Shown piece by piece: positions 726-24,715 of a stretch of DNA of 64,000 bases (positions within the stretch are counted from its first letter, which is position 1; every line of letters begins with the position of its first letter). Where the stretch lies: positions 64,001-128,000 of the forward strand of contig JABCTZ010000007.1 of the NCBI GenBank assembly GCA_018238155.1. Direction: 5' to 3'. Source of the stretch: Candidatus Heimdallarchaeota archaeon (lineage in GTDB: Archaea > Asgardarchaeota > Heimdallarchaeia > JABLTI01). A program made the translations under genes and the position numbers. The notes under the pieces are model-generated. The model worked only from the letters and a program-made list of their open reading frames with translations, ran no database searches and had not been told where the DNA came from.

Positions 726-962
726 CTTAATTCCTCATTTTCTTTTTGTCCTTCTTCGGTTTTAAGTCTATTTTCTAGTTTTTCTTTCACCACATCAAAT
801 AAATCTTTAAATATTCTTAAATAAAGCTGAATTTCAGTCTAAAAAGAAAGGGATTTATTACTTGTTAATCTAAACCTTCAAAAAAGTTAAATAATCGATA
901 GGTGAGGAAATCTTCTCATAGGATTACTCATCAAAATTTAATTCGAAAGAAATGGTAGATGC

Positions 963-2243
963 ATGCATATGAACTCTAAGAAATTCTATACTACTATGTT
1001 TGTTATTGCTTTGCTAGCAATTGTTATTCAAATGAGCTTTACTTCAACTGGCACTTATGAAACAGCCGGTTTTAAGGGTGAAAAACCAATTGTTATTTTT
1101 GATATTGCTCATCAAACCTCTTTCAATAATACTCACATGCAATCTGCTTTAGCTTTATTGGAAACAAAATATGATGCTGAAATAATTGTCAATGAAGATA
1201 ATTTCACGTTAACAAATCTTCGTGGAGCAGATTTACTTATCTTATCCGCTCCCTACTATCTAGCAAGAAATCCCTACTCTGATTTAGAAAAATTAGCTTT
1301 AACTGAATTCATTCAAGATAGTGGTTCAGTTTTATTTATGGCAAACCCATTTATTTTTGAAGATAGTATGCGAAATTTCACCTCTCATACAAATTATCTA
1401 AATTCAATGATGGATGGTACTTATGGTGAACTAAGTTTTCAACCTCGAAATACTCTGATGTTGAATGATTTCTCATATAGATATGATGATCAGCGTTTCA
1501 TTTATTTAAATAGTAGTGATTTTGATACAAAACATTCAATCATCACTGGTAATTCTGAAATTGATGAAGCAATTGATGAACTATTAACTATTACAACGAG
1601 TATTAGTGCAACTGGTTCTAGCGAGAGGATAATAACCGTTCCTGAAACCTCATATTATCTGGAATATACTGATGAGAATACCAGTTCAATTCCTGTTGGT
1701 GCGGTTAGTGACCATACAATTTTAAATGCTAATGAAAAATACGGCGGTCGAGCAATTTCAATTTGTTCTGGAATTATGTTTAGTGATATAGAAATAATTG
1801 GCGCAAATATGACTTGGTTTGAAGCATATGATAATGCTCAACTTTGGGAGAATCTTATTTCTTGGCTCTTTTTCAAATTGCCTGTTAATCCTCAATCAAA
1901 CCCCGTTCCTGATTTCTGGGTTTTTACTCTTAGTATATTAGGTGGATTTTTAGTTCTTATGGTATTCGGATTGATTTTGTTTACTGCAGGTAAAGAAACC
2001 AAACGAGTTGAAGTTTCGGATGCTTTACAGAAAATACGTGAGAAAGATTCCCGACGAAAAAGCGAAGAAAAAGAAATCGAAGAAGCTTTCTATGCTGAAG
2101 ATGAAGTTGATGAGGACGTAATTGAAGAAGAAGAAGAACTTGTTGAAGAGGTTAAAGAAGTAGATATGAAAAGCATTTCTGATGAAGTTAAGAAGAAACC
2201 TCCAAAATCCCGTTCACGAAGTGATCGTAGAAGAAATGATTAA
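963..2243 (+). CDS. Single-pass membrane protein with extracellular GldG/IFT52 (GIFT)-like domain and acidic cytoplasmic tail
   Basis: Signal-like N-terminus; IFDIAH, LRGADLLILSAP, YSDLEKLALTEFIQDSGSVLFM; TM helix near aa 318-342; D/E-rich tail ending in a basic RS-rich stretch. Confidence 0.6.
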   Translation: MHMNSKKFYTTMFVIALLAIVIQMSFTSTGTYETAGFKGEKPIVIFDIAHQTSFNNTHMQSALALLETKYDAEIIVNEDNFTLTNLRGADLLILSAPYYLARNPYSDLEKLALTEFIQDSGSVLFMANPFIFEDSMRNFTSHTNYLNSMMDGTYGELSFQPRNTLMLNDFSYRYDDQRFIYLNSSDFDTKHSIITGNSEIDEAIDELLTITTSISATGSSERIITVPETSYYLEYTDENTSSIPVGAVSDHTILNANEKYGGRAISICSGIMFSDIEIIGANMTWFEAYDNAQLWENLISWLFFKLPVNPQSNPVPDFWVFTLSILGGFLVLMVFGLILFTAGKETKRVEVSDALQKIREKDSRRKSEEKEIEEAFYAEDEVDEDVIEEEEELVEEVKEVDMKSISDEVKKKPPKSRSRSDRRRND

Positions 2244-2312
2244 TTCATTTTTTTCTTTCTTTATTTTATATTTTCATCGAAAAATATATGATATTTGAAG
2301 ATAATCTGAAAG

Positions 2313-4328
2313 TTGAATATTATGCCATTAAAATTTACTTTTCCACATAGTATTAGTGGAATAATTATTGCCGGTGGTACAAGTTCTCGATTTCAGAAAA
2401 AAAATGAACCATGGCAAGATAAAGCTCTTTTTACAATATCAGGAAATTTGAATCTATTACAAAGAACAGTAATGGTTTTTTCTGATATATGTGATGAAAT
2501 CATTGTTGTTGTTAATAATTCAATTCAAATTTCACTTTATTCATCTGCAATATCTATGTTGAATGATGAAATAAAACCAAAAGTGAAAATCATAAAAGAT
2601 AATCCATCCTATTTGTGCTCTGGTCCTACTTTGGGTATATTGACTGGTATTCAAGCAGTAAAGAATAATTTTGTTTTATTGGCTCCTGTTGATATACCTT
2701 TGTTATCCTCAATTGTTCTCCAACAACTAATTAGTAATATTATGGATTCATCAATGATAGTACCCTATTGGCCTTCAACAGGAAAAATTGAACCCTTAAT
2801 CGCTGCTTTGAATGTACAGAGTATTTTAGAAAATGGACTTTTACTTTCATTAATAAAACGAAGTAGAGCTGATGATATTCATCGCCTAGTTCCAAAAATA
2901 CGATTTCTACCAATATCCTCTAAGTATAAAGAAATATTAGAAAAGATTTTTACAAATTTGAATAAACCAGAATTAATAGCCAACACAAAATCACTAGATC
3001 TTGACTTCTCAGGTTTAGATTTTTTTATTCCAAATCAATCATTTTCTGTGAATAATAAATTCGAGAAAAATGAATTGAATGAATTATATGATTTTCTACA
3101 AGAGAAAATGTTTATGCAACTTTCTCAGAAAGATTTGGATAAAATAACTAATTTAACTAATTTGTTATTTAAAAAGGAGAACTATTTTATTGTAGGTTTA
3201 GTTCTTAACAATTTATTTGGCTTAATATCAGAGGATAACCAGAGTAGAAAAGAAATCCAATCTCTCTGTTTCCAAGCTTTTACAAAGGAAGCTGAAAAGT
3301 GGAATAGAAATGAAGTGAGCTTCCTAGAATTACATTCATATACTGATGCTTCAAGTGTTCAAAACTCATCGCTTAAACAACAAACTAATCAAACATTGAA
3401 AATTAAAATTTCATCACTAATGGACAAGATGCATTTGAAGAAGAAAAATCATAAGAAATACGATATGGATGAGCTAATCAACAAACGATCACCAAAGCTA
3501 CTTGAAAAAATCAAACATATCATTCAAAAATCCGAGAGTGATTTCAATAAAGAAAATTCTTCTTATGAAACTAATTTCTTGTGGGATCATTCATATCGTG
3601 TAGGGAAAATCGCTTACACTCTTGCTCTAAGAGAGGGAGTTCATCCACTAATTCCTACAATTGCTGCTTTATTCCATGATGCCGGGAAGTTTTTTTTAGG
3701 ACAGTATCACGTTGATGATATTCCCGAAGAAACTCACTCTGCAAATATCGCTGAGCATATATTGACAGAAGAGGGATTCCCCTCTAAAGAGATACAACTA
3801 ATTCTTTCTGCAATATCTGCGCTTTATAACGATCAAATGGATTGTGATTTTCATTGTCAAATTGTACATGATGCTGATCGTTTGGAAAAATTAGGTCTAT
3901 TAGGAATAGCAAATTTTTTCACTAAAGCTACTCTGCGAAGTAAAAATCTTTCAGAAGCTCTTAGCAGTAGTTTAAGTAGGGAGTTAACTTATGCAAATGT
4001 GTCTCCAAAAACAATGCTAACAAAATCTGGTCGTTTATTTGCTCTTGAAGCAAGTAAAAAAACCATTAACTATTTTGATGGCTTACTAGAAGAGTTAGAA
4101 TTATTTGGACTTGGAAAATTTCATTCGAAGAAAACATTGCTTGATATGGGTATAGAGATTATCTTAGTTGTTCCTGAGAATTGTTTGCATTGTAAGGGTG
4201 AATATTTGATTACTATCACTACTGAAATAGGTATTAAATGTGAGAAACTTACTGCTCATTTTTCATGTAATAGATGCAAAGAGCAATATGATATCTCATT
4301 TTGTTTGCCGATAATAAATCAAATTTAA
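2313..4328 (+). CDS. MobA-like NTP-transferase fused to an HD phosphohydrolase and a C-terminal Cys4 Zn ribbon
   Basis: IIAGGTSSRF...DKAL, GPTLGI, PVDIP, EPL (MobA); HSYRV...FHDAGK...HDADRLE (HD); CLHC...CNRC. Confidence 0.8.
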   Translation: MNIMPLKFTFPHSISGIIIAGGTSSRFQKKNEPWQDKALFTISGNLNLLQRTVMVFSDICDEIIVVVNNSIQISLYSSAISMLNDEIKPKVKIIKDNPSYLCSGPTLGILTGIQAVKNNFVLLAPVDIPLLSSIVLQQLISNIMDSSMIVPYWPSTGKIEPLIAALNVQSILENGLLLSLIKRSRADDIHRLVPKIRFLPISSKYKEILEKIFTNLNKPELIANTKSLDLDFSGLDFFIPNQSFSVNNKFEKNELNELYDFLQEKMFMQLSQKDLDKITNLTNLLFKKENYFIVGLVLNNLFGLISEDNQSRKEIQSLCFQAFTKEAEKWNRNEVSFLELHSYTDASSVQNSSLKQQTNQTLKIKISSLMDKMHLKKKNHKKYDMDELINKRSPKLLEKIKHIIQKSESDFNKENSSYETNFLWDHSYRVGKIAYTLALREGVHPLIPTIAALFHDAGKFFLGQYHVDDIPEETHSANIAEHILTEEGFPSKEIQLILSAISALYNDQMDCDFHCQIVHDADRLEKLGLLGIANFFTKATLRSKNLSEALSSSLSRELTYANVSPKTMLTKSGRLFALEASKKTINYFDGLLEELELFGLGKFHSKKTLLDMGIEIILVVPENCLHCKGEYLITITTEIGIKCEKLTAHFSCNRCKEQYDISFCLPIINQI

Positions 4329-22690: not shown

Positions 22691-23656
22691 TTGGCAATTG
22701 CAGATTTCTTTGATATAATTCCAAGTATAGGTATTTTTTGGAATACAGTAATATTTACTTCGCTAGCTTGGTTGCTAGTTGTGATTGTAATAGTAATAAT
22801 TTTTATACTAACTTCAAAAAAGAAGAAAGGCGTTGATGTTTCTGCTTTAGCTGCTCTGGCATCATCTGAACCGATGAGTGAAGAAACAGCACCAGATGCT
22901 AATCCAAAAGAAGTTATGGCTATTTTACAAATAGAACGCGTTGCAGCGAGTACTGCTTTATCTGCAGTCAAAGATGCGCGAAAATCTAAAAGAATAAGTT
23001 CAGGTGTACGTGATTCATTAGCTAATCGGTATAAAGCTCGGATTGCAAAAATTGATGCTGACTTGAAACGCAGATCTGGCGCTCAAGAATATAAATCATT
23101 AGCAGATAGTTTAGAACAATCCAGAGATCGAGTAAGAGGTGAAATTGTTCCAGGTACTGGACCAAGTTCAATACCCCCTCCTCCCCCCTCCTCAAGCACT
23201 CCAGGTATTCCATCAATTGCTCCCCCCGTACCTGGTGTCCCTCGTCCACCATCAACAGCAGGTCCTCCAAGTATTCCATCAACAGGTCCACCTAAAGTTC
23301 CCTCATTGGGCACACCTCCATCAAAACCATCTTCACCAATACCCATACCACCAAGCATCCCAACGGTATCCTCTTCCGCTAGACCTACAACTGTAGTTCC
23401 TCCAAGTGTTGCTCCTCCAACAGTTTCAACACCACCTTTACCCCCTAGATTACCTGCATCTTCCCCAATTGCTCCTCCAACAACATCAAATATAGCTCCT
23501 CCACCTGTTCCTACATCCACACCTGCAGCGTCTCCAACAGCTCCTGTTGCGCCAACTGGTGATGGCGACGGTCAAAGTATAAGTGGTTTAAGAATGGAAA
23601 TGCTGAGAGAATTAGCACGATTGAAGAAATTTATGAGTGAAGAAACTCAAGATTAA
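22691..23656 (+). CDS. Membrane-anchored proline-rich protein with C-terminal amphipathic helix (WH2- or MIM1-like)
   Basis: N-terminal TM plus KKKK, helical hairpin, about 140 aa of Pro/Ser/Thr-rich sequence, then GLRMEMLRELARLKKF and a short acidic end. Confidence 0.8.
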   Translation: MAIADFFDIIPSIGIFWNTVIFTSLAWLLVVIVIVIIFILTSKKKKGVDVSALAALASSEPMSEETAPDANPKEVMAILQIERVAASTALSAVKDARKSKRISSGVRDSLANRYKARIAKIDADLKRRSGAQEYKSLADSLEQSRDRVRGEIVPGTGPSSIPPPPPSSSTPGIPSIAPPVPGVPRPPSTAGPPSIPSTGPPKVPSLGTPPSKPSSPIPIPPSIPTVSSSARPTTVVPPSVAPPTVSTPPLPPRLPASSPIAPPTTSNIAPPPVPTSTPAASPTAPVAPTGDGDGQSISGLRMEMLRELARLKKFMSEETQD

Positions 23657-23761
23657 TTCTATAAAAAATAGAGGGAAAACTCCCTCCTAATTGTTTTTCT
23701 GAAATTGTAGAAATTGCCTTAATGTACCAAGATATAACATTAAATACTATCTTCTTGTTAT

Positions 23762-24715
23762 TTGGTATTATCTATTGGATTTGAAATGATGTCCGCAATA
23801 AAAGGAGTAATCTCAAAATTTGAAACCAAAGTTTCTATTGCACTAATCGGTTTAACCAACTCTGGTAAGACATCATTAGTAAAAAGAATTATTCAATCAC
23901 AAGACTTTTTGCAAGGTTCGATTTCAGGTATTTCTGAACTAGAATATCATACTATCGATAATTTAACACTGATTACTTGGGATTTAAAGGACCATATACC
24001 TCAATATCAATCATTATGGAAACGCTCAATTTTGGGTGCAGATGCATTATTTTTCTTAGTAGATTCAACTGATTCATCCACTTTCGAAAAAAATAAACAA
24101 CTCATATTAGAGGTAGTCGAATTTAATTCTCCAATTAAAATGCTGGTACTAGCATCAAAATCTGACCTTGAGTCTTCTGTTCCTGTAAGTAGTTTATTAG
24201 AACAACTTGAGTTGATAAGCTTAGACCGACATAAATGTACCTGCGATCTGTTCAAATTTTCTTCCCAAACAGGTGAAGGAATATATGCCATTAGTGAATG
24301 GCTAAATAAGTCATTTTTCAAACAAAAAGAACGAGCAATAAACTATGTTGAAATTAAAGCTTCACTTATTCTAAATGAAGAAACTGATCAATTATTCGAA
24401 GCATTATTTGTAGATAATCCAAATATCTTGCTATTAACTGCCTTTAGAGAGCTAAGACGCAAAGCACGAGTTTTTTCTCGAACGATGCGCATTAATGTTG
24501 TAGGAGAAGAAGTGATTGAAATAGCAAATTACAAAGTTATTTTTGTGAAAGAAAAATCTTATGTTATTGCATTTTTAACAGGTTACAATGATCCAATTAA
24601 TAGAGCCATTGAAATTGCTAGAAATGTACTATACAATGCTACTTTAATGAATGACAAGCGCCTTAACTTAAGAAAACTAATTGGTGATCTTTATCCCTTA
24701 GACCTTCCGCGATAA
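23762..24715 (+). CDS. Arf/Rag-like small GTPase with degenerate G3/G4 and a C-terminal longin/roadblock-like domain
   Basis: GLTNSGKTS, TWDLKD, LWKRS..GADALFFLVDS, LASKSD, FSSQTGEGI...EWL; about 130-aa alpha/beta C-terminal domain. Confidence 0.8.
   Translation: MVLSIGFEMMSAIKGVISKFETKVSIALIGLTNSGKTSLVKRIIQSQDFLQGSISGISELEYHTIDNLTLITWDLKDHIPQYQSLWKRSILGADALFFLVDSTDSSTFEKNKQLILEVVEFNSPIKMLVLASKSDLESSVPVSSLLEQLELISLDRHKCTCDLFKFSSQTGEGIYAISEWLNKSFFKQKERAINYVEIKASLILNEETDQLFEALFVDNPNILLLTAFRELRRKARVFSRTMRINVVGEEVIEIANYKVIFVKEKSYVIAFLTGYNDPINRAIEIARNVLYNATLMNDKRLNLRKLIGDLYPLDLPR

Follow-up and report, generated by a model that had tools for sequence, protein, structure and literature searches.

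We describe a gene, P0001, that lies in a 64,000-nucleotide stretch of the genome of a Candidatus Heimdallarchaeota archaeon (GenBank assembly GCA_018238155.1, contig JABCTZ010000007.1, positions 64,001 to 128,000 of the forward strand; hereafter, the window). P0001 belongs to an undescribed protein family that is nearly universal in Asgard archaea. With moderate confidence, we read P0001 as a transmembrane (TM)-anchored adaptor that would function like CdvA or like a subunit of the endosomal sorting complex ESCRT-I, with a portable MIM1-type helix at its C-terminus that would dock Vps4. We know of no account of how ESCRT or actin attaches to the membrane in Asgard archaea. The family is present in ~85% of the sampled Asgard genomes, its terminal helix is kept nearly letter for letter across classes, and its hairpin resembles those of ESCRT-I and CdvA. 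This combination of wide spread, a conserved docking helix, and an ESCRT-I/CdvA-like hairpin therefore makes the family a concrete candidate for the missing link between the membrane and ESCRT or actin.

The open reading frame (ORF) of P0001 is open from 22691 to 23656 and encodes 321 residues from a TTG start, according to the ORF list and its translation. This start is supported because homologs begin with M-A-I/W at the same position. The gene and the parts of its product, with the evidence for each, are as follows.

22691..23656, forward strand: P0001, the whole gene, encoding a putative membrane-anchored adaptor of 321 residues (ORF list, translation, homologs).
22733..22828, forward strand: TM helix, residues 15-43, ending in KKKK at residues 43-46 (AlphaFold2 helix; hydrophobic-then-basic pattern in homologs).
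22898..23140, forward strand: predicted cytoplasmic helical hairpin, residues 70-150, steadiness-box/CdvA-like (AlphaFold2, hhalign, VIA-align).
23141..23578, forward strand: predicted disordered Pro/Ser/Thr-rich tether, residues 151-296, with conserved blocks (low AlphaFold2 confidence, composition, motif counts).
23579..23641, forward strand: C-terminal amphipathic helix, residues 297-317, followed by an acidic end (alignment, tail profile, MIT complex model).

The structure of P0001 was modeled with AlphaFold2 (AF2) from an alignment of 21 homologs. The model places helices at residues 15-43 (the TM helix), 50-57 (a short helix), 72-98 and 104-150 (the hairpin, with predicted local distance difference test [pLDDT] values of 78-90), and 297-317 (the terminal helix). 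Residues 151-296 are without secondary structure and have low pLDDT. An earlier sequence-only reading of this DNA had listed a TM helix followed by KKKK, a hairpin, a Pro-rich stretch, and a terminal helix, and both the model and the translation agree with that layout. The translation likewise bears out the C-terminal sequence that it gave, since P0001 ends in GLRMEMLRELARLKKFMSEETQD. A hydrophobic stretch followed by basic residues is found in all of the P0001 homologs, though the sequence of the TM segment varies, and by the positive-inside rule P0001 would be oriented with its N-terminus out and its C-terminus in. The short, presumably extracytoplasmic N-terminus (22691-22732 of the window) has a conserved motif, which reads I-I-P-S-I-G in P0001 and F-P-D-x-L-P-P-E-G-L in most members of the wider family (alignment A5). 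Conservation of this motif ahead of the TM helix suggests a contact that faces the outside of the cell.

Conservation of the terminal helix is extreme. Within the alignment of 21 homologs, which are 58-87% identical overall, residues 297-316 are invariant in 21 of 21 sequences; conservation is strong in the hairpin and comes in blocks in the Pro-rich region, and the TM segment is variable. A profile search of 1.8 billion representatives retrieved distant members that are ~21-28% identical to P0001 overall and in which the tail is nearly unchanged, so that the conservation the sequence-only reading had proposed to check is borne out among both close and distant relatives. These distant members keep to one plan, in which a short LPPEG-type motif at the N-terminus is followed by the TM helix, a hairpin of the form G-E-I-S...Y...L...Y, an acidic Pro-rich linker, and a tail of the type F-A-K-S-T-S-I-A-A-L-R-M-E-M-L-R-E-L-A-R-L-K-K. 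Judged from these alignments, conservation of the tail is far beyond chance.

A word-indexed search found 45 relatives of P0001, and the first 43 cluster representatives listed are 54-79% identical to it and all derive from Heimdall-group or Asgard metagenome-assembled genomes (MAGs). None of the relatives from this search is named (all are "hypothetical") and none is assigned a Pfam family. A Pfam scan of P0001 (E up to 0.1) gave only sub-threshold matches to BatA and DUF4381 on the TM region, and its relatives produced no Pfam match above the cut-off. When the whole family was used in a profile search of the PDB, the matches were only to low-complexity Pro/Ala linkers, and matches in the ESM Atlas were only to unnamed Thorarchaeota clusters (score 0.83).

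We searched 301 Asgard genomes, sampled phylum-wide, with a profile of the tail (A3, 34 positions). The profile matches 256 of the 301 genomes and 84 of the 90 high-quality ones, mostly once per genome, and the motif is unique in the genome that carries P0001. The protein that bears the tail differs by lineage. It is a TM-hairpin protein in the class to which P0001 belongs and a set of 560-residue multi-TM tandem paralogs in one family. In the Lokiarchaeia-type family (f14), the Odin-like family (f8), and two others, it is a soluble protein of 216-250 residues in which a helical N-terminus of another kind is followed by a conserved A-A-S-T-L-F-S-L-L-S-G motif, a linker rich in G-P-P-K/R, and the tail. 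The soluble N-terminus is unrelated to the P0001 hairpin (hhalign <1%), and this Loki-type module is not steadiness-box-like. In some lineages the LKK of the tail is replaced by LRA, LKG, LKQ, LRD, or LRE. Weaker extra copies of the tail occur in small hairpin proteins, in a vWA/Zn-ribbon protein, and in Zn-ribbon proteins. In one such case, a 559-residue Zn-ribbon and vWA-like protein (locus L105 of genome G040, 1300-2976, reverse strand) has an internal tail-like L-K-S-E-M-L-N-E-L-N-R-L-K-S ~70 residues before its end, and small Zn-ribbon proteins (L106 and L107) contain an internal L-R-D-E-M-L-x-E-L. Carried on at least two unrelated N-terminal modules, the tail behaves like a peptide that docks on some conserved hub. 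On sequence grounds, then, the conserved unit is a Pro-rich linker plus terminal helix, a portable docking peptide.

The genome that carries P0001 encodes Vps4 (394 residues, on contig C41, with an MIT domain at 1-75), along with Vps28, a UEV-Vps23-like protein, and two ESCRT-III proteins. The C-terminal helix of each of the latter two has the pattern E-Phi-x-x-E-Phi-x-x-L-[RK]-K, which P0001 shows at E303-K313. We compared the tail with 44 Asgard ESCRT-III C-termini from across the phylum by ungapped BLOSUM62 scoring, using composition-matched charged helices from the same proteome as controls. The median best score was 16 for the tail and 9 for the controls, and the former value was reached by 0 of 2000 resamples. 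The best pair is identical at 9 of 18 positions, including a ...LKKxMSE end, and with a probability of ~0.05 the highest of 44 control scores would equal the top tail score. The MIM1 consensus is (D/E)xxLxxRLxxL(K/R). In the tail, M304, L308, L311, and K312 occupy the hydrophobic and basic positions of this consensus. As in a MIM1, the amphipathic helix (297-317) is at the very C-terminus of this 321-residue protein and follows a disordered linker of 145 residues.

Modeling the tail (A3) in complex with the Vps4 MIT domain (A4), which the sequence-only reading had called for, gave weak support, with a score of 0.34 compared with 0.02 for the best of 3 controls. Contact agreement among the runs was at least 91% and the pLDDT of the partner was at least 62. 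The mark applied to this score is passed by 58 of 80 solved complexes and by 2 of 110 mismatched pairs, and passes at or below 0.60 comprise 7 of the 80 solved complexes plus both of the mismatches; custom alignments were used for our predictions, so that these benchmark counts hold only roughly. In Asgard Vps4, the MIT domain has been reported to bind MIM1 and MIM2 motifs of Asgard ESCRT-III (PMC7240154).

We also considered how the tail is distributed relative to MIT and actin. MIT is found in 278 of the 301 genomes, and it is present in every family that holds the tail, in nearly all of their genomes. In family f21 (5 genomes, 75-83% complete), actin is present in 5/5 genomes, and MIT, Snf7, and the tail are each present in 0/5; the canonical actin of f21 is 53-54% identical to that of the genome from which the window comes. 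Asgard lineages without ESCRT are known (PMC11188069). In family f11, the MIT domain is altered at sites that are invariant elsewhere (Y26, E38K, N49L, Y63C) and the ESCRT-III tails are aberrant (...V-E-E-L-L-L-E-L-E-E-E-A-R...). The tail of the f11 P0001-family protein is aberrant as well (...S-E-M-L-A-E-M-E-R-L-K-A-L-M...), and its change is similar to that of the f11 ESCRT-III tails (E-[ML]-L-x-E-[LM]-E). Actin of f11, at 71-73% identity, is as conserved as in other classes.

The hairpin also points toward ESCRT-I. When an alignment of the family hairpin (A6) was compared with one of the C-terminal steadiness box of Asgard Vps23-like proteins (A7), hhalign reported a probability of 75.8% and an E of 2.3e-5 over 49 columns; an unrelated helical control alignment (A8) scored <1%. 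Single relatives gave sub-threshold Pfam matches to CdvA (7.8e-4) and Vps23_core (0.024), and two hairpin-family members found by genome search match Vps23_core at 5.6e-4 and 0.018. A Pfam scan of P0001 itself (E up to 0.1) returned neither a steadiness-box nor a CdvA match, and a search of its own genome with PF18822 (CdvA) did not match the P0001 gene. Further tail-bearing paralogs also combine a GE(I/L)(S/T)-type hairpin with the tail.

We compared the hairpin model with 48,161 chains using VIA-align. The ten best matches include four ESCRT-I headpiece entries and CdvA, with Z values of 9.1-9.9 that are common for helical folds and with rmsd values of 1.0-2.2 except in one case (2p22_A). 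Vps23 of yeast ESCRT-I (2f66_A) is tied for the top match (Z 9.9, root-mean-square deviation [rmsd] of 2.2, 65/65 residues). A second entry, 2p22_A, has the same Z of 9.9 but an rmsd of 20.4, and 2caz_D (Z 9.1, rmsd 1.0) and 6vme_C (Z 9.1) follow. The CdvA filament of S. islandicus (9s9g_A) gave a Z of 9.2 with an rmsd of 1.2 over 70 residues. These matches of a predicted structure are consistent with a steadiness box and are no proof of one. The CdvA hairpin has already been equated with the steadiness box (PMC11188069). The N-terminus of the P0001 model is a TM helix with no PRC-barrel. CdvA itself has such a barrel at its N-terminus and an ESCRT-III-binding (BWI) strand or a MIM2 at its C-terminus, and P0001, which is not a member, would work like CdvA at most. 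Neither P0001 (E up to 0.1) nor 19 of its relatives matched Snf7. Taken with the WH2 search described below, these tests put P0001 outside the ESCRT-III, CdvA, and WH2 families.

The linker that connects the hairpin to the tail (151-296) is 34% Pro and 17% Ser. It contains all of the motifs that the sequence-only reading had placed in the Pro-rich region, namely PPPPP (162-166), four (I/V)APP repeats (at 176, 240, 260, and 268), and a literal PTAP (282-285). Shuffling the linker 5000 times never produced four [IV]APP, and it produced one P[TS]AP in 30% of cases. The PTAP at 282 is not conserved in position among the 21 homologs, and at least one P[TS]AP is found in 17 of the 21, often within a conserved GIP-x-T/S-APPVPG block. 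The PTAP of the sequence-only reading, as a candidate UEV ligand, is not borne out in the form stated. The few charged residues of the linker lie in PhiP[KR]PhiP cores at 183, 200, and 251. Three matches to the MIM2 core PhiP[RKDE]PhiP (VPRPP, PPKVP, and PPRLP) were found compared with 0.38 expected (P 0.006), and two of the sites are retained in 16 of 21 homologs; the expression (PMC8970359) is loose and fits other PxxP ligands too.

A Pro-rich region followed by an amphipathic LKK helix is also a layout suited to an actin-linked tether of the Ena/VASP or WH2 type. In that case the Pro-rich region would recruit profilin-actin and the LKK helix would bind monomeric or filamentous actin, coupling actin assembly to the membrane. 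We judge this unlikely, and several observations speak for it nonetheless. The tail is identical at 8 of 19 positions to the F-actin-binding motif of human VASP (259-278, PMC10340426), a similarity within the top 0.2-0.3% among windows of the proteome. The conservation of actin (71-76% identity phylum-wide) matches an invariant ligand more closely than that of the MIT domain. Weak binding to polyproline is reported for Heimdall LC3 and Thor profilins (PMC8410842), and an Arf GTPase co-precipitated with Lokiactin (10.1101/2025.11.30.690169), while an Arf-like gene adjoins P0001. Finally, the soluble tail gene lies upstream of an actin paralog in three Lokiarchaeia-type genera. At these loci (L050, L051, and L057, from genomes G147, G264, and G008), a soluble tail protein of 217-234 residues is followed by one variable small gene and then, on the strand of the tail gene, by the actin paralog. 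The paralog is 41-42% identical to canonical actin, and the canonical actin (74-75% identical) is located elsewhere.

Against an actin-linked tether, this adjacency is confined to one family and is absent from the Odin-type, f27, and f12 loci and from the Heimdall class. Other variants of the tail resemble the VASP motif less closely, falling only within the top 1.5-5%, and the tail profile has no match to WH2 or VASP chains in the PDB. Family f21 retains actin without the tail, in f11 the tail is changed and actin is not, and the hairpin points to ESCRT-I. In a WH2 motif, a linker joins a short helix to an extended LKK(T/V). In the tail, F/L/I/Y comes after LKK, the LKK itself belongs to the predicted helix and to no extended segment beyond it, and the spacing is unlike that of WH2. 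The Pfam scan at E up to 0.1 detected neither WH2 (PF02205) nor VASP in P0001, though short WH2 motifs are hard to detect; the missing match lowers the case for WH2 membership, and the protein may bind actin all the same. The known WH2-like motifs of Asgard archaea sit in gelsolins (PMC9433394). The WH2/WASP likeness that the sequence-only reading had drawn is not supported as stated, with LKK inside a helix and no Pfam WH2 or WASP match, and a role as a nucleation-promoting factor finds no support here. Of the two branches between which it had, with good judgment, left the choice, an ESCRT recruiter gains from the ESCRT-III likeness of the tail, the MIT model, the hairpin, f21, and f11, and actin nucleation promotion goes unsupported.

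A number of observations weigh against the ESCRT adaptor as well, among them the actin-paralog adjacency just described. The literal LxxRLxxL(K/R) that the sequence-only reading had proposed does not hold, with E307 in place of the MIM1 Arg and R301 where an acidic residue is expected; a Glu of the E307 type also occupies the MIM1 Arg position in the ESCRT-III tails of the same genome. A hidden Markov model (HMM) of ESCRT-III tails does not place P0001 among the top 15 ORFs of its genome, and the tail HMM does not retrieve ESCRT-III tails. The score of the MIT-tail model is weak and, since MIT-MIM1 complexes have already been solved, its pass may reflect likeness and not binding. The hairpin matches to Vps23 and CdvA tie with those to unrelated helical hairpins, and its steadiness-box match falls below the Pfam cut-offs. 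In the loci examined, a P0001-type gene is never beside ESCRT genes. Family f24 has MIT in 7/7 genomes and no detectable tail; therefore, the tail protein is not obligatory for ESCRT. The co-loss in f21 and the covariation in f11 are seen in one lineage each and are only suggestive of an ESCRT link. Lastly, conservation of the tail greatly exceeds that of the MIT domain (33-44% identity phylum-wide) and of the ESCRT-III tails, which hints at a more constrained, or an additional, partner.

To another explanation we assign a low probability: that the helix binds some other conserved Asgard hub, or self-associates as a short coiled coil that clusters P0001, and that its likeness to ESCRT and actin ligands is generic to charged amphipathic helices. 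In the PDB the tail profile matches only the sequences of leucine-zipper variants of GCN4 (E-V-A-R-L-K-K-L; E 0.02), HMM searches between it and the ESCRT-III tails fail in both directions, tail conservation exceeds that of either proposed partner motif, and tail-like helices occur within the vWA/Zn-ribbon and small Zn-ribbon proteins. A helix of 21 residues that stays identical to the letter among families sharing only ~21-28% identity overall is, however, more than a generic zipper requires, and the helix is unique in its own genome. The patterns in f21 and f11 and the clean controls of the MIT model would also need another explanation.

Weighing these observations, we favor the ESCRT adaptor. 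They show the architecture of P0001, its conservation, its phyletic spread, and how portable its tail is, and from them we infer the binding partners and the direction of recruitment. The short N-terminus would lie outside, one TM helix would serve as the anchor, and the remainder of the protein would be cytoplasmic. The hairpin may pack with similar hairpins, such as those of the Vps23-like protein and Vps28 of the same genome, or with itself. Beyond it, a flexible, ~145-residue Pro-rich tether would present conserved PhiP[KR]PhiP and P(T/S)AP-type motifs, and the terminal helix, of the ESCRT-III MIM1 type, would dock in the helix-2/helix-3 groove of the Vps4 MIT domain. In this way P0001 would keep Vps4 at the membrane or bring it there, perhaps together with ESCRT-I. 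For CdvA, Vps37, Vps27, and Bro1, no homolog has been reported in Asgard archaea (PMC11188069). A more specific proposal, which we put forward only tentatively and regard as rather doubtful, is that the family, near-universal and Asgard-specific, supplies the membrane anchor that has been missing for Asgard ESCRT: a third steadiness-box subunit, functionally equivalent to Vps37 or CdvA, that would fix ESCRT-I to the membrane through its TM helix and bring in Vps4 through its MIM1-type helix. If this is true, a single protein would connect the CdvA of archaea with the ESCRT-I of eukaryotes. As a peptide the tail comprises 25 residues, and cultured Lokiarchaeia have the soluble form.

Several other genes bear on the ESCRT machinery of this genome. 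Its two Snf7 proteins are encoded away from P0001. A second MIT protein of 284 residues is encoded on contig C6 (L013, 859-1713, reverse strand); its N-terminal MIT domain (Pfam 38.9 bits) is followed by a Lys/Pro-rich stretch with two PPPPP runs and then by a C-terminal domain. This protein could be an alternative receptor for the tail. Contig C21 (L089) carries tandem ESCRT-I genes for a 250-residue Vps23-like protein with UEV, coiled coil, and steadiness box (1477-2229, reverse strand) and a 212-residue Vps28 (825-1463, reverse strand). At the equivalent locus of the sister family f2, one protein of 470-489 residues has both the steadiness-box and the Vps28-like C-terminal regions. On contig C17 (L018, 1417-2046 and 2234-3160, both forward), one ESCRT-III gene is followed directly, on the same strand, by the gene for a Gtr1/RagA-like GTPase (Pfam 80.8 bits) whose C-terminal half is roadblock-like. 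A Vps4-like match near an f11 family member was rejected because it belongs to a proteasomal ATPase of the PAN type, which has a coiled coil and lacks an MIT domain.

Two further features lie 3' of P0001.

23671..23697, forward strand: terminator-like hairpin plus T-run just 3' of the P0001 stop codon (consensus scan only).
23789..24715, forward strand: P0002, Arf/Arl-like GTPase fused to a roadblock/longin-like domain, likely start M10 (Pfam Arf, AF2, Foldseek).

P0002 matches Pfam Arf at 1.3e-17 and has degenerate G3 (W-D-L-K-D) and G4 (S-K-S-D) motifs. Its AF2 model (pLDDT 82) has a C-terminal domain with the order beta-beta-alpha-beta-beta-beta-alpha, and its Foldseek matches include Arl8A (2.3e-13) and the Asgard HodArfR1. 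By BLASTP, it has no similarity to the Gtr1/RagA-like GTPase beside ESCRT-III. In each of 5 Heimdall-family contexts, one of which has different upstream genes, P0001 and P0002 are adjacent and share a strand. Such retention, together with a neighbor that combines a GTPase with a roadblock/longin-like fold and the existence of Asgard Rag-like GTPase-roadblock architectures (PMC10933270), would suit P0001 as a membrane receptor or anchor for the adjacent protein, as LAMTOR1/Ego1 is for Rag/Gtr, with an anchor helix packing on the roadblock domain. We consider this very improbable. Beyond the Heimdall family (f1), the gene that follows is mostly rpiA, with a different one at a single locus, yet the tail stays the same. 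Sequence change in the GTPase is fast (34-61% identity), the P-loop is degenerate in one copy, and the terminator-like hairpin lies between the two genes, such that P0001 may be terminated apart from P0002. The copy in question, in a more distant Heimdall MAG (L003, 6118-7050, forward strand), is a P0002-type GTPase with the degenerate P-loop G-L-P-N-V-N-F-M-T and has lost the NKxD-type motif; by its sequence it is probably a pseudo-GTPase kept as a scaffold. In f2, f3, and f11 (L008/L009, L011, and L056), rpiA lies directly 3' of the TM-hairpin-tail gene, a deep synteny with no obvious functional meaning. Because the GTPase evolves fast, the neighbor differs outside the Heimdall family, and a terminator-like site intervenes, P0002 is an unlikely partner of the phylum-wide tail. 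It may instead work with the clade-specific hairpin, which would be compatible with P0001 as an ESCRT adaptor.

Comparison with known systems would place P0001 among tethers that capture a cytoplasmic machine. Like ZipA-type tethers, which have a TM anchor, a P/Q-rich linker, and a C-terminal partner-binding element, it has an anchor, a long flexible linker, and an end element. There is no homology between the two, and ZipA ends in a folded FtsZ-binding domain whereas P0001 ends in a single helix. The EVH2 region of Ena/VASP, in which Pro-rich sequence precedes motifs that bind monomeric and filamentous actin, resembles P0001, whose Pro-rich region likewise leads into a short amphipathic helix of basic character. 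Unlike Ena/VASP, P0001 is TM-anchored, lacks EVH1 and tetramerization domains, and has no match to the family, and the phyletic and covariation data point away from actin. Like the MIM1 of Vps2/24/46-class ESCRT-III proteins, the P0001 helix is amphipathic, lies at the C-terminus beyond a flexible linker, and has its hydrophobic residues at i, i+4, and i+7 ahead of a basic one. It differs in that its bearer has no Snf7 core, a Glu replaces the consensus Arg, and it is much more conserved.

The ESCRT-I headpiece (Vps23/TSG101, Vps28, and Vps37) offers a hairpin of the same size and shape, profile similarity between its Asgard Vps23-like steadiness box and the P0001 hairpin, and, in Vps23/TSG101, a Pro-rich linker beside the hairpin. 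P0001 is distinguished from the ESCRT-I subunits by its TM anchor and by the absence of a UEV domain, a stalk coiled coil, and a Vps28 C-terminal domain. To our knowledge, a MIM-like tail is on no known ESCRT-I subunit. The closest functional analog of P0001 would be thaumarchaeal CdvA, which consists of a CdvA_alpha hairpin, CdvA_beta, and a C-terminal MIM2 (PMC8970359, PMC11188069). P0001 differs from it in having a true TM helix, no PRC-barrel, and a terminal MIM1-type helix in place of a proline MIM2, and its family is Asgard-specific, with a Pfam CdvA match below the cut-off. Like P0001 in our reading, however, CdvA is a membrane-bound recruiter in which a hairpin is combined with an MIT-interacting motif after a Pro-rich stretch, and recruitment in this way, with a hairpin and a MIM2, has been proposed for it (PMC8970359).

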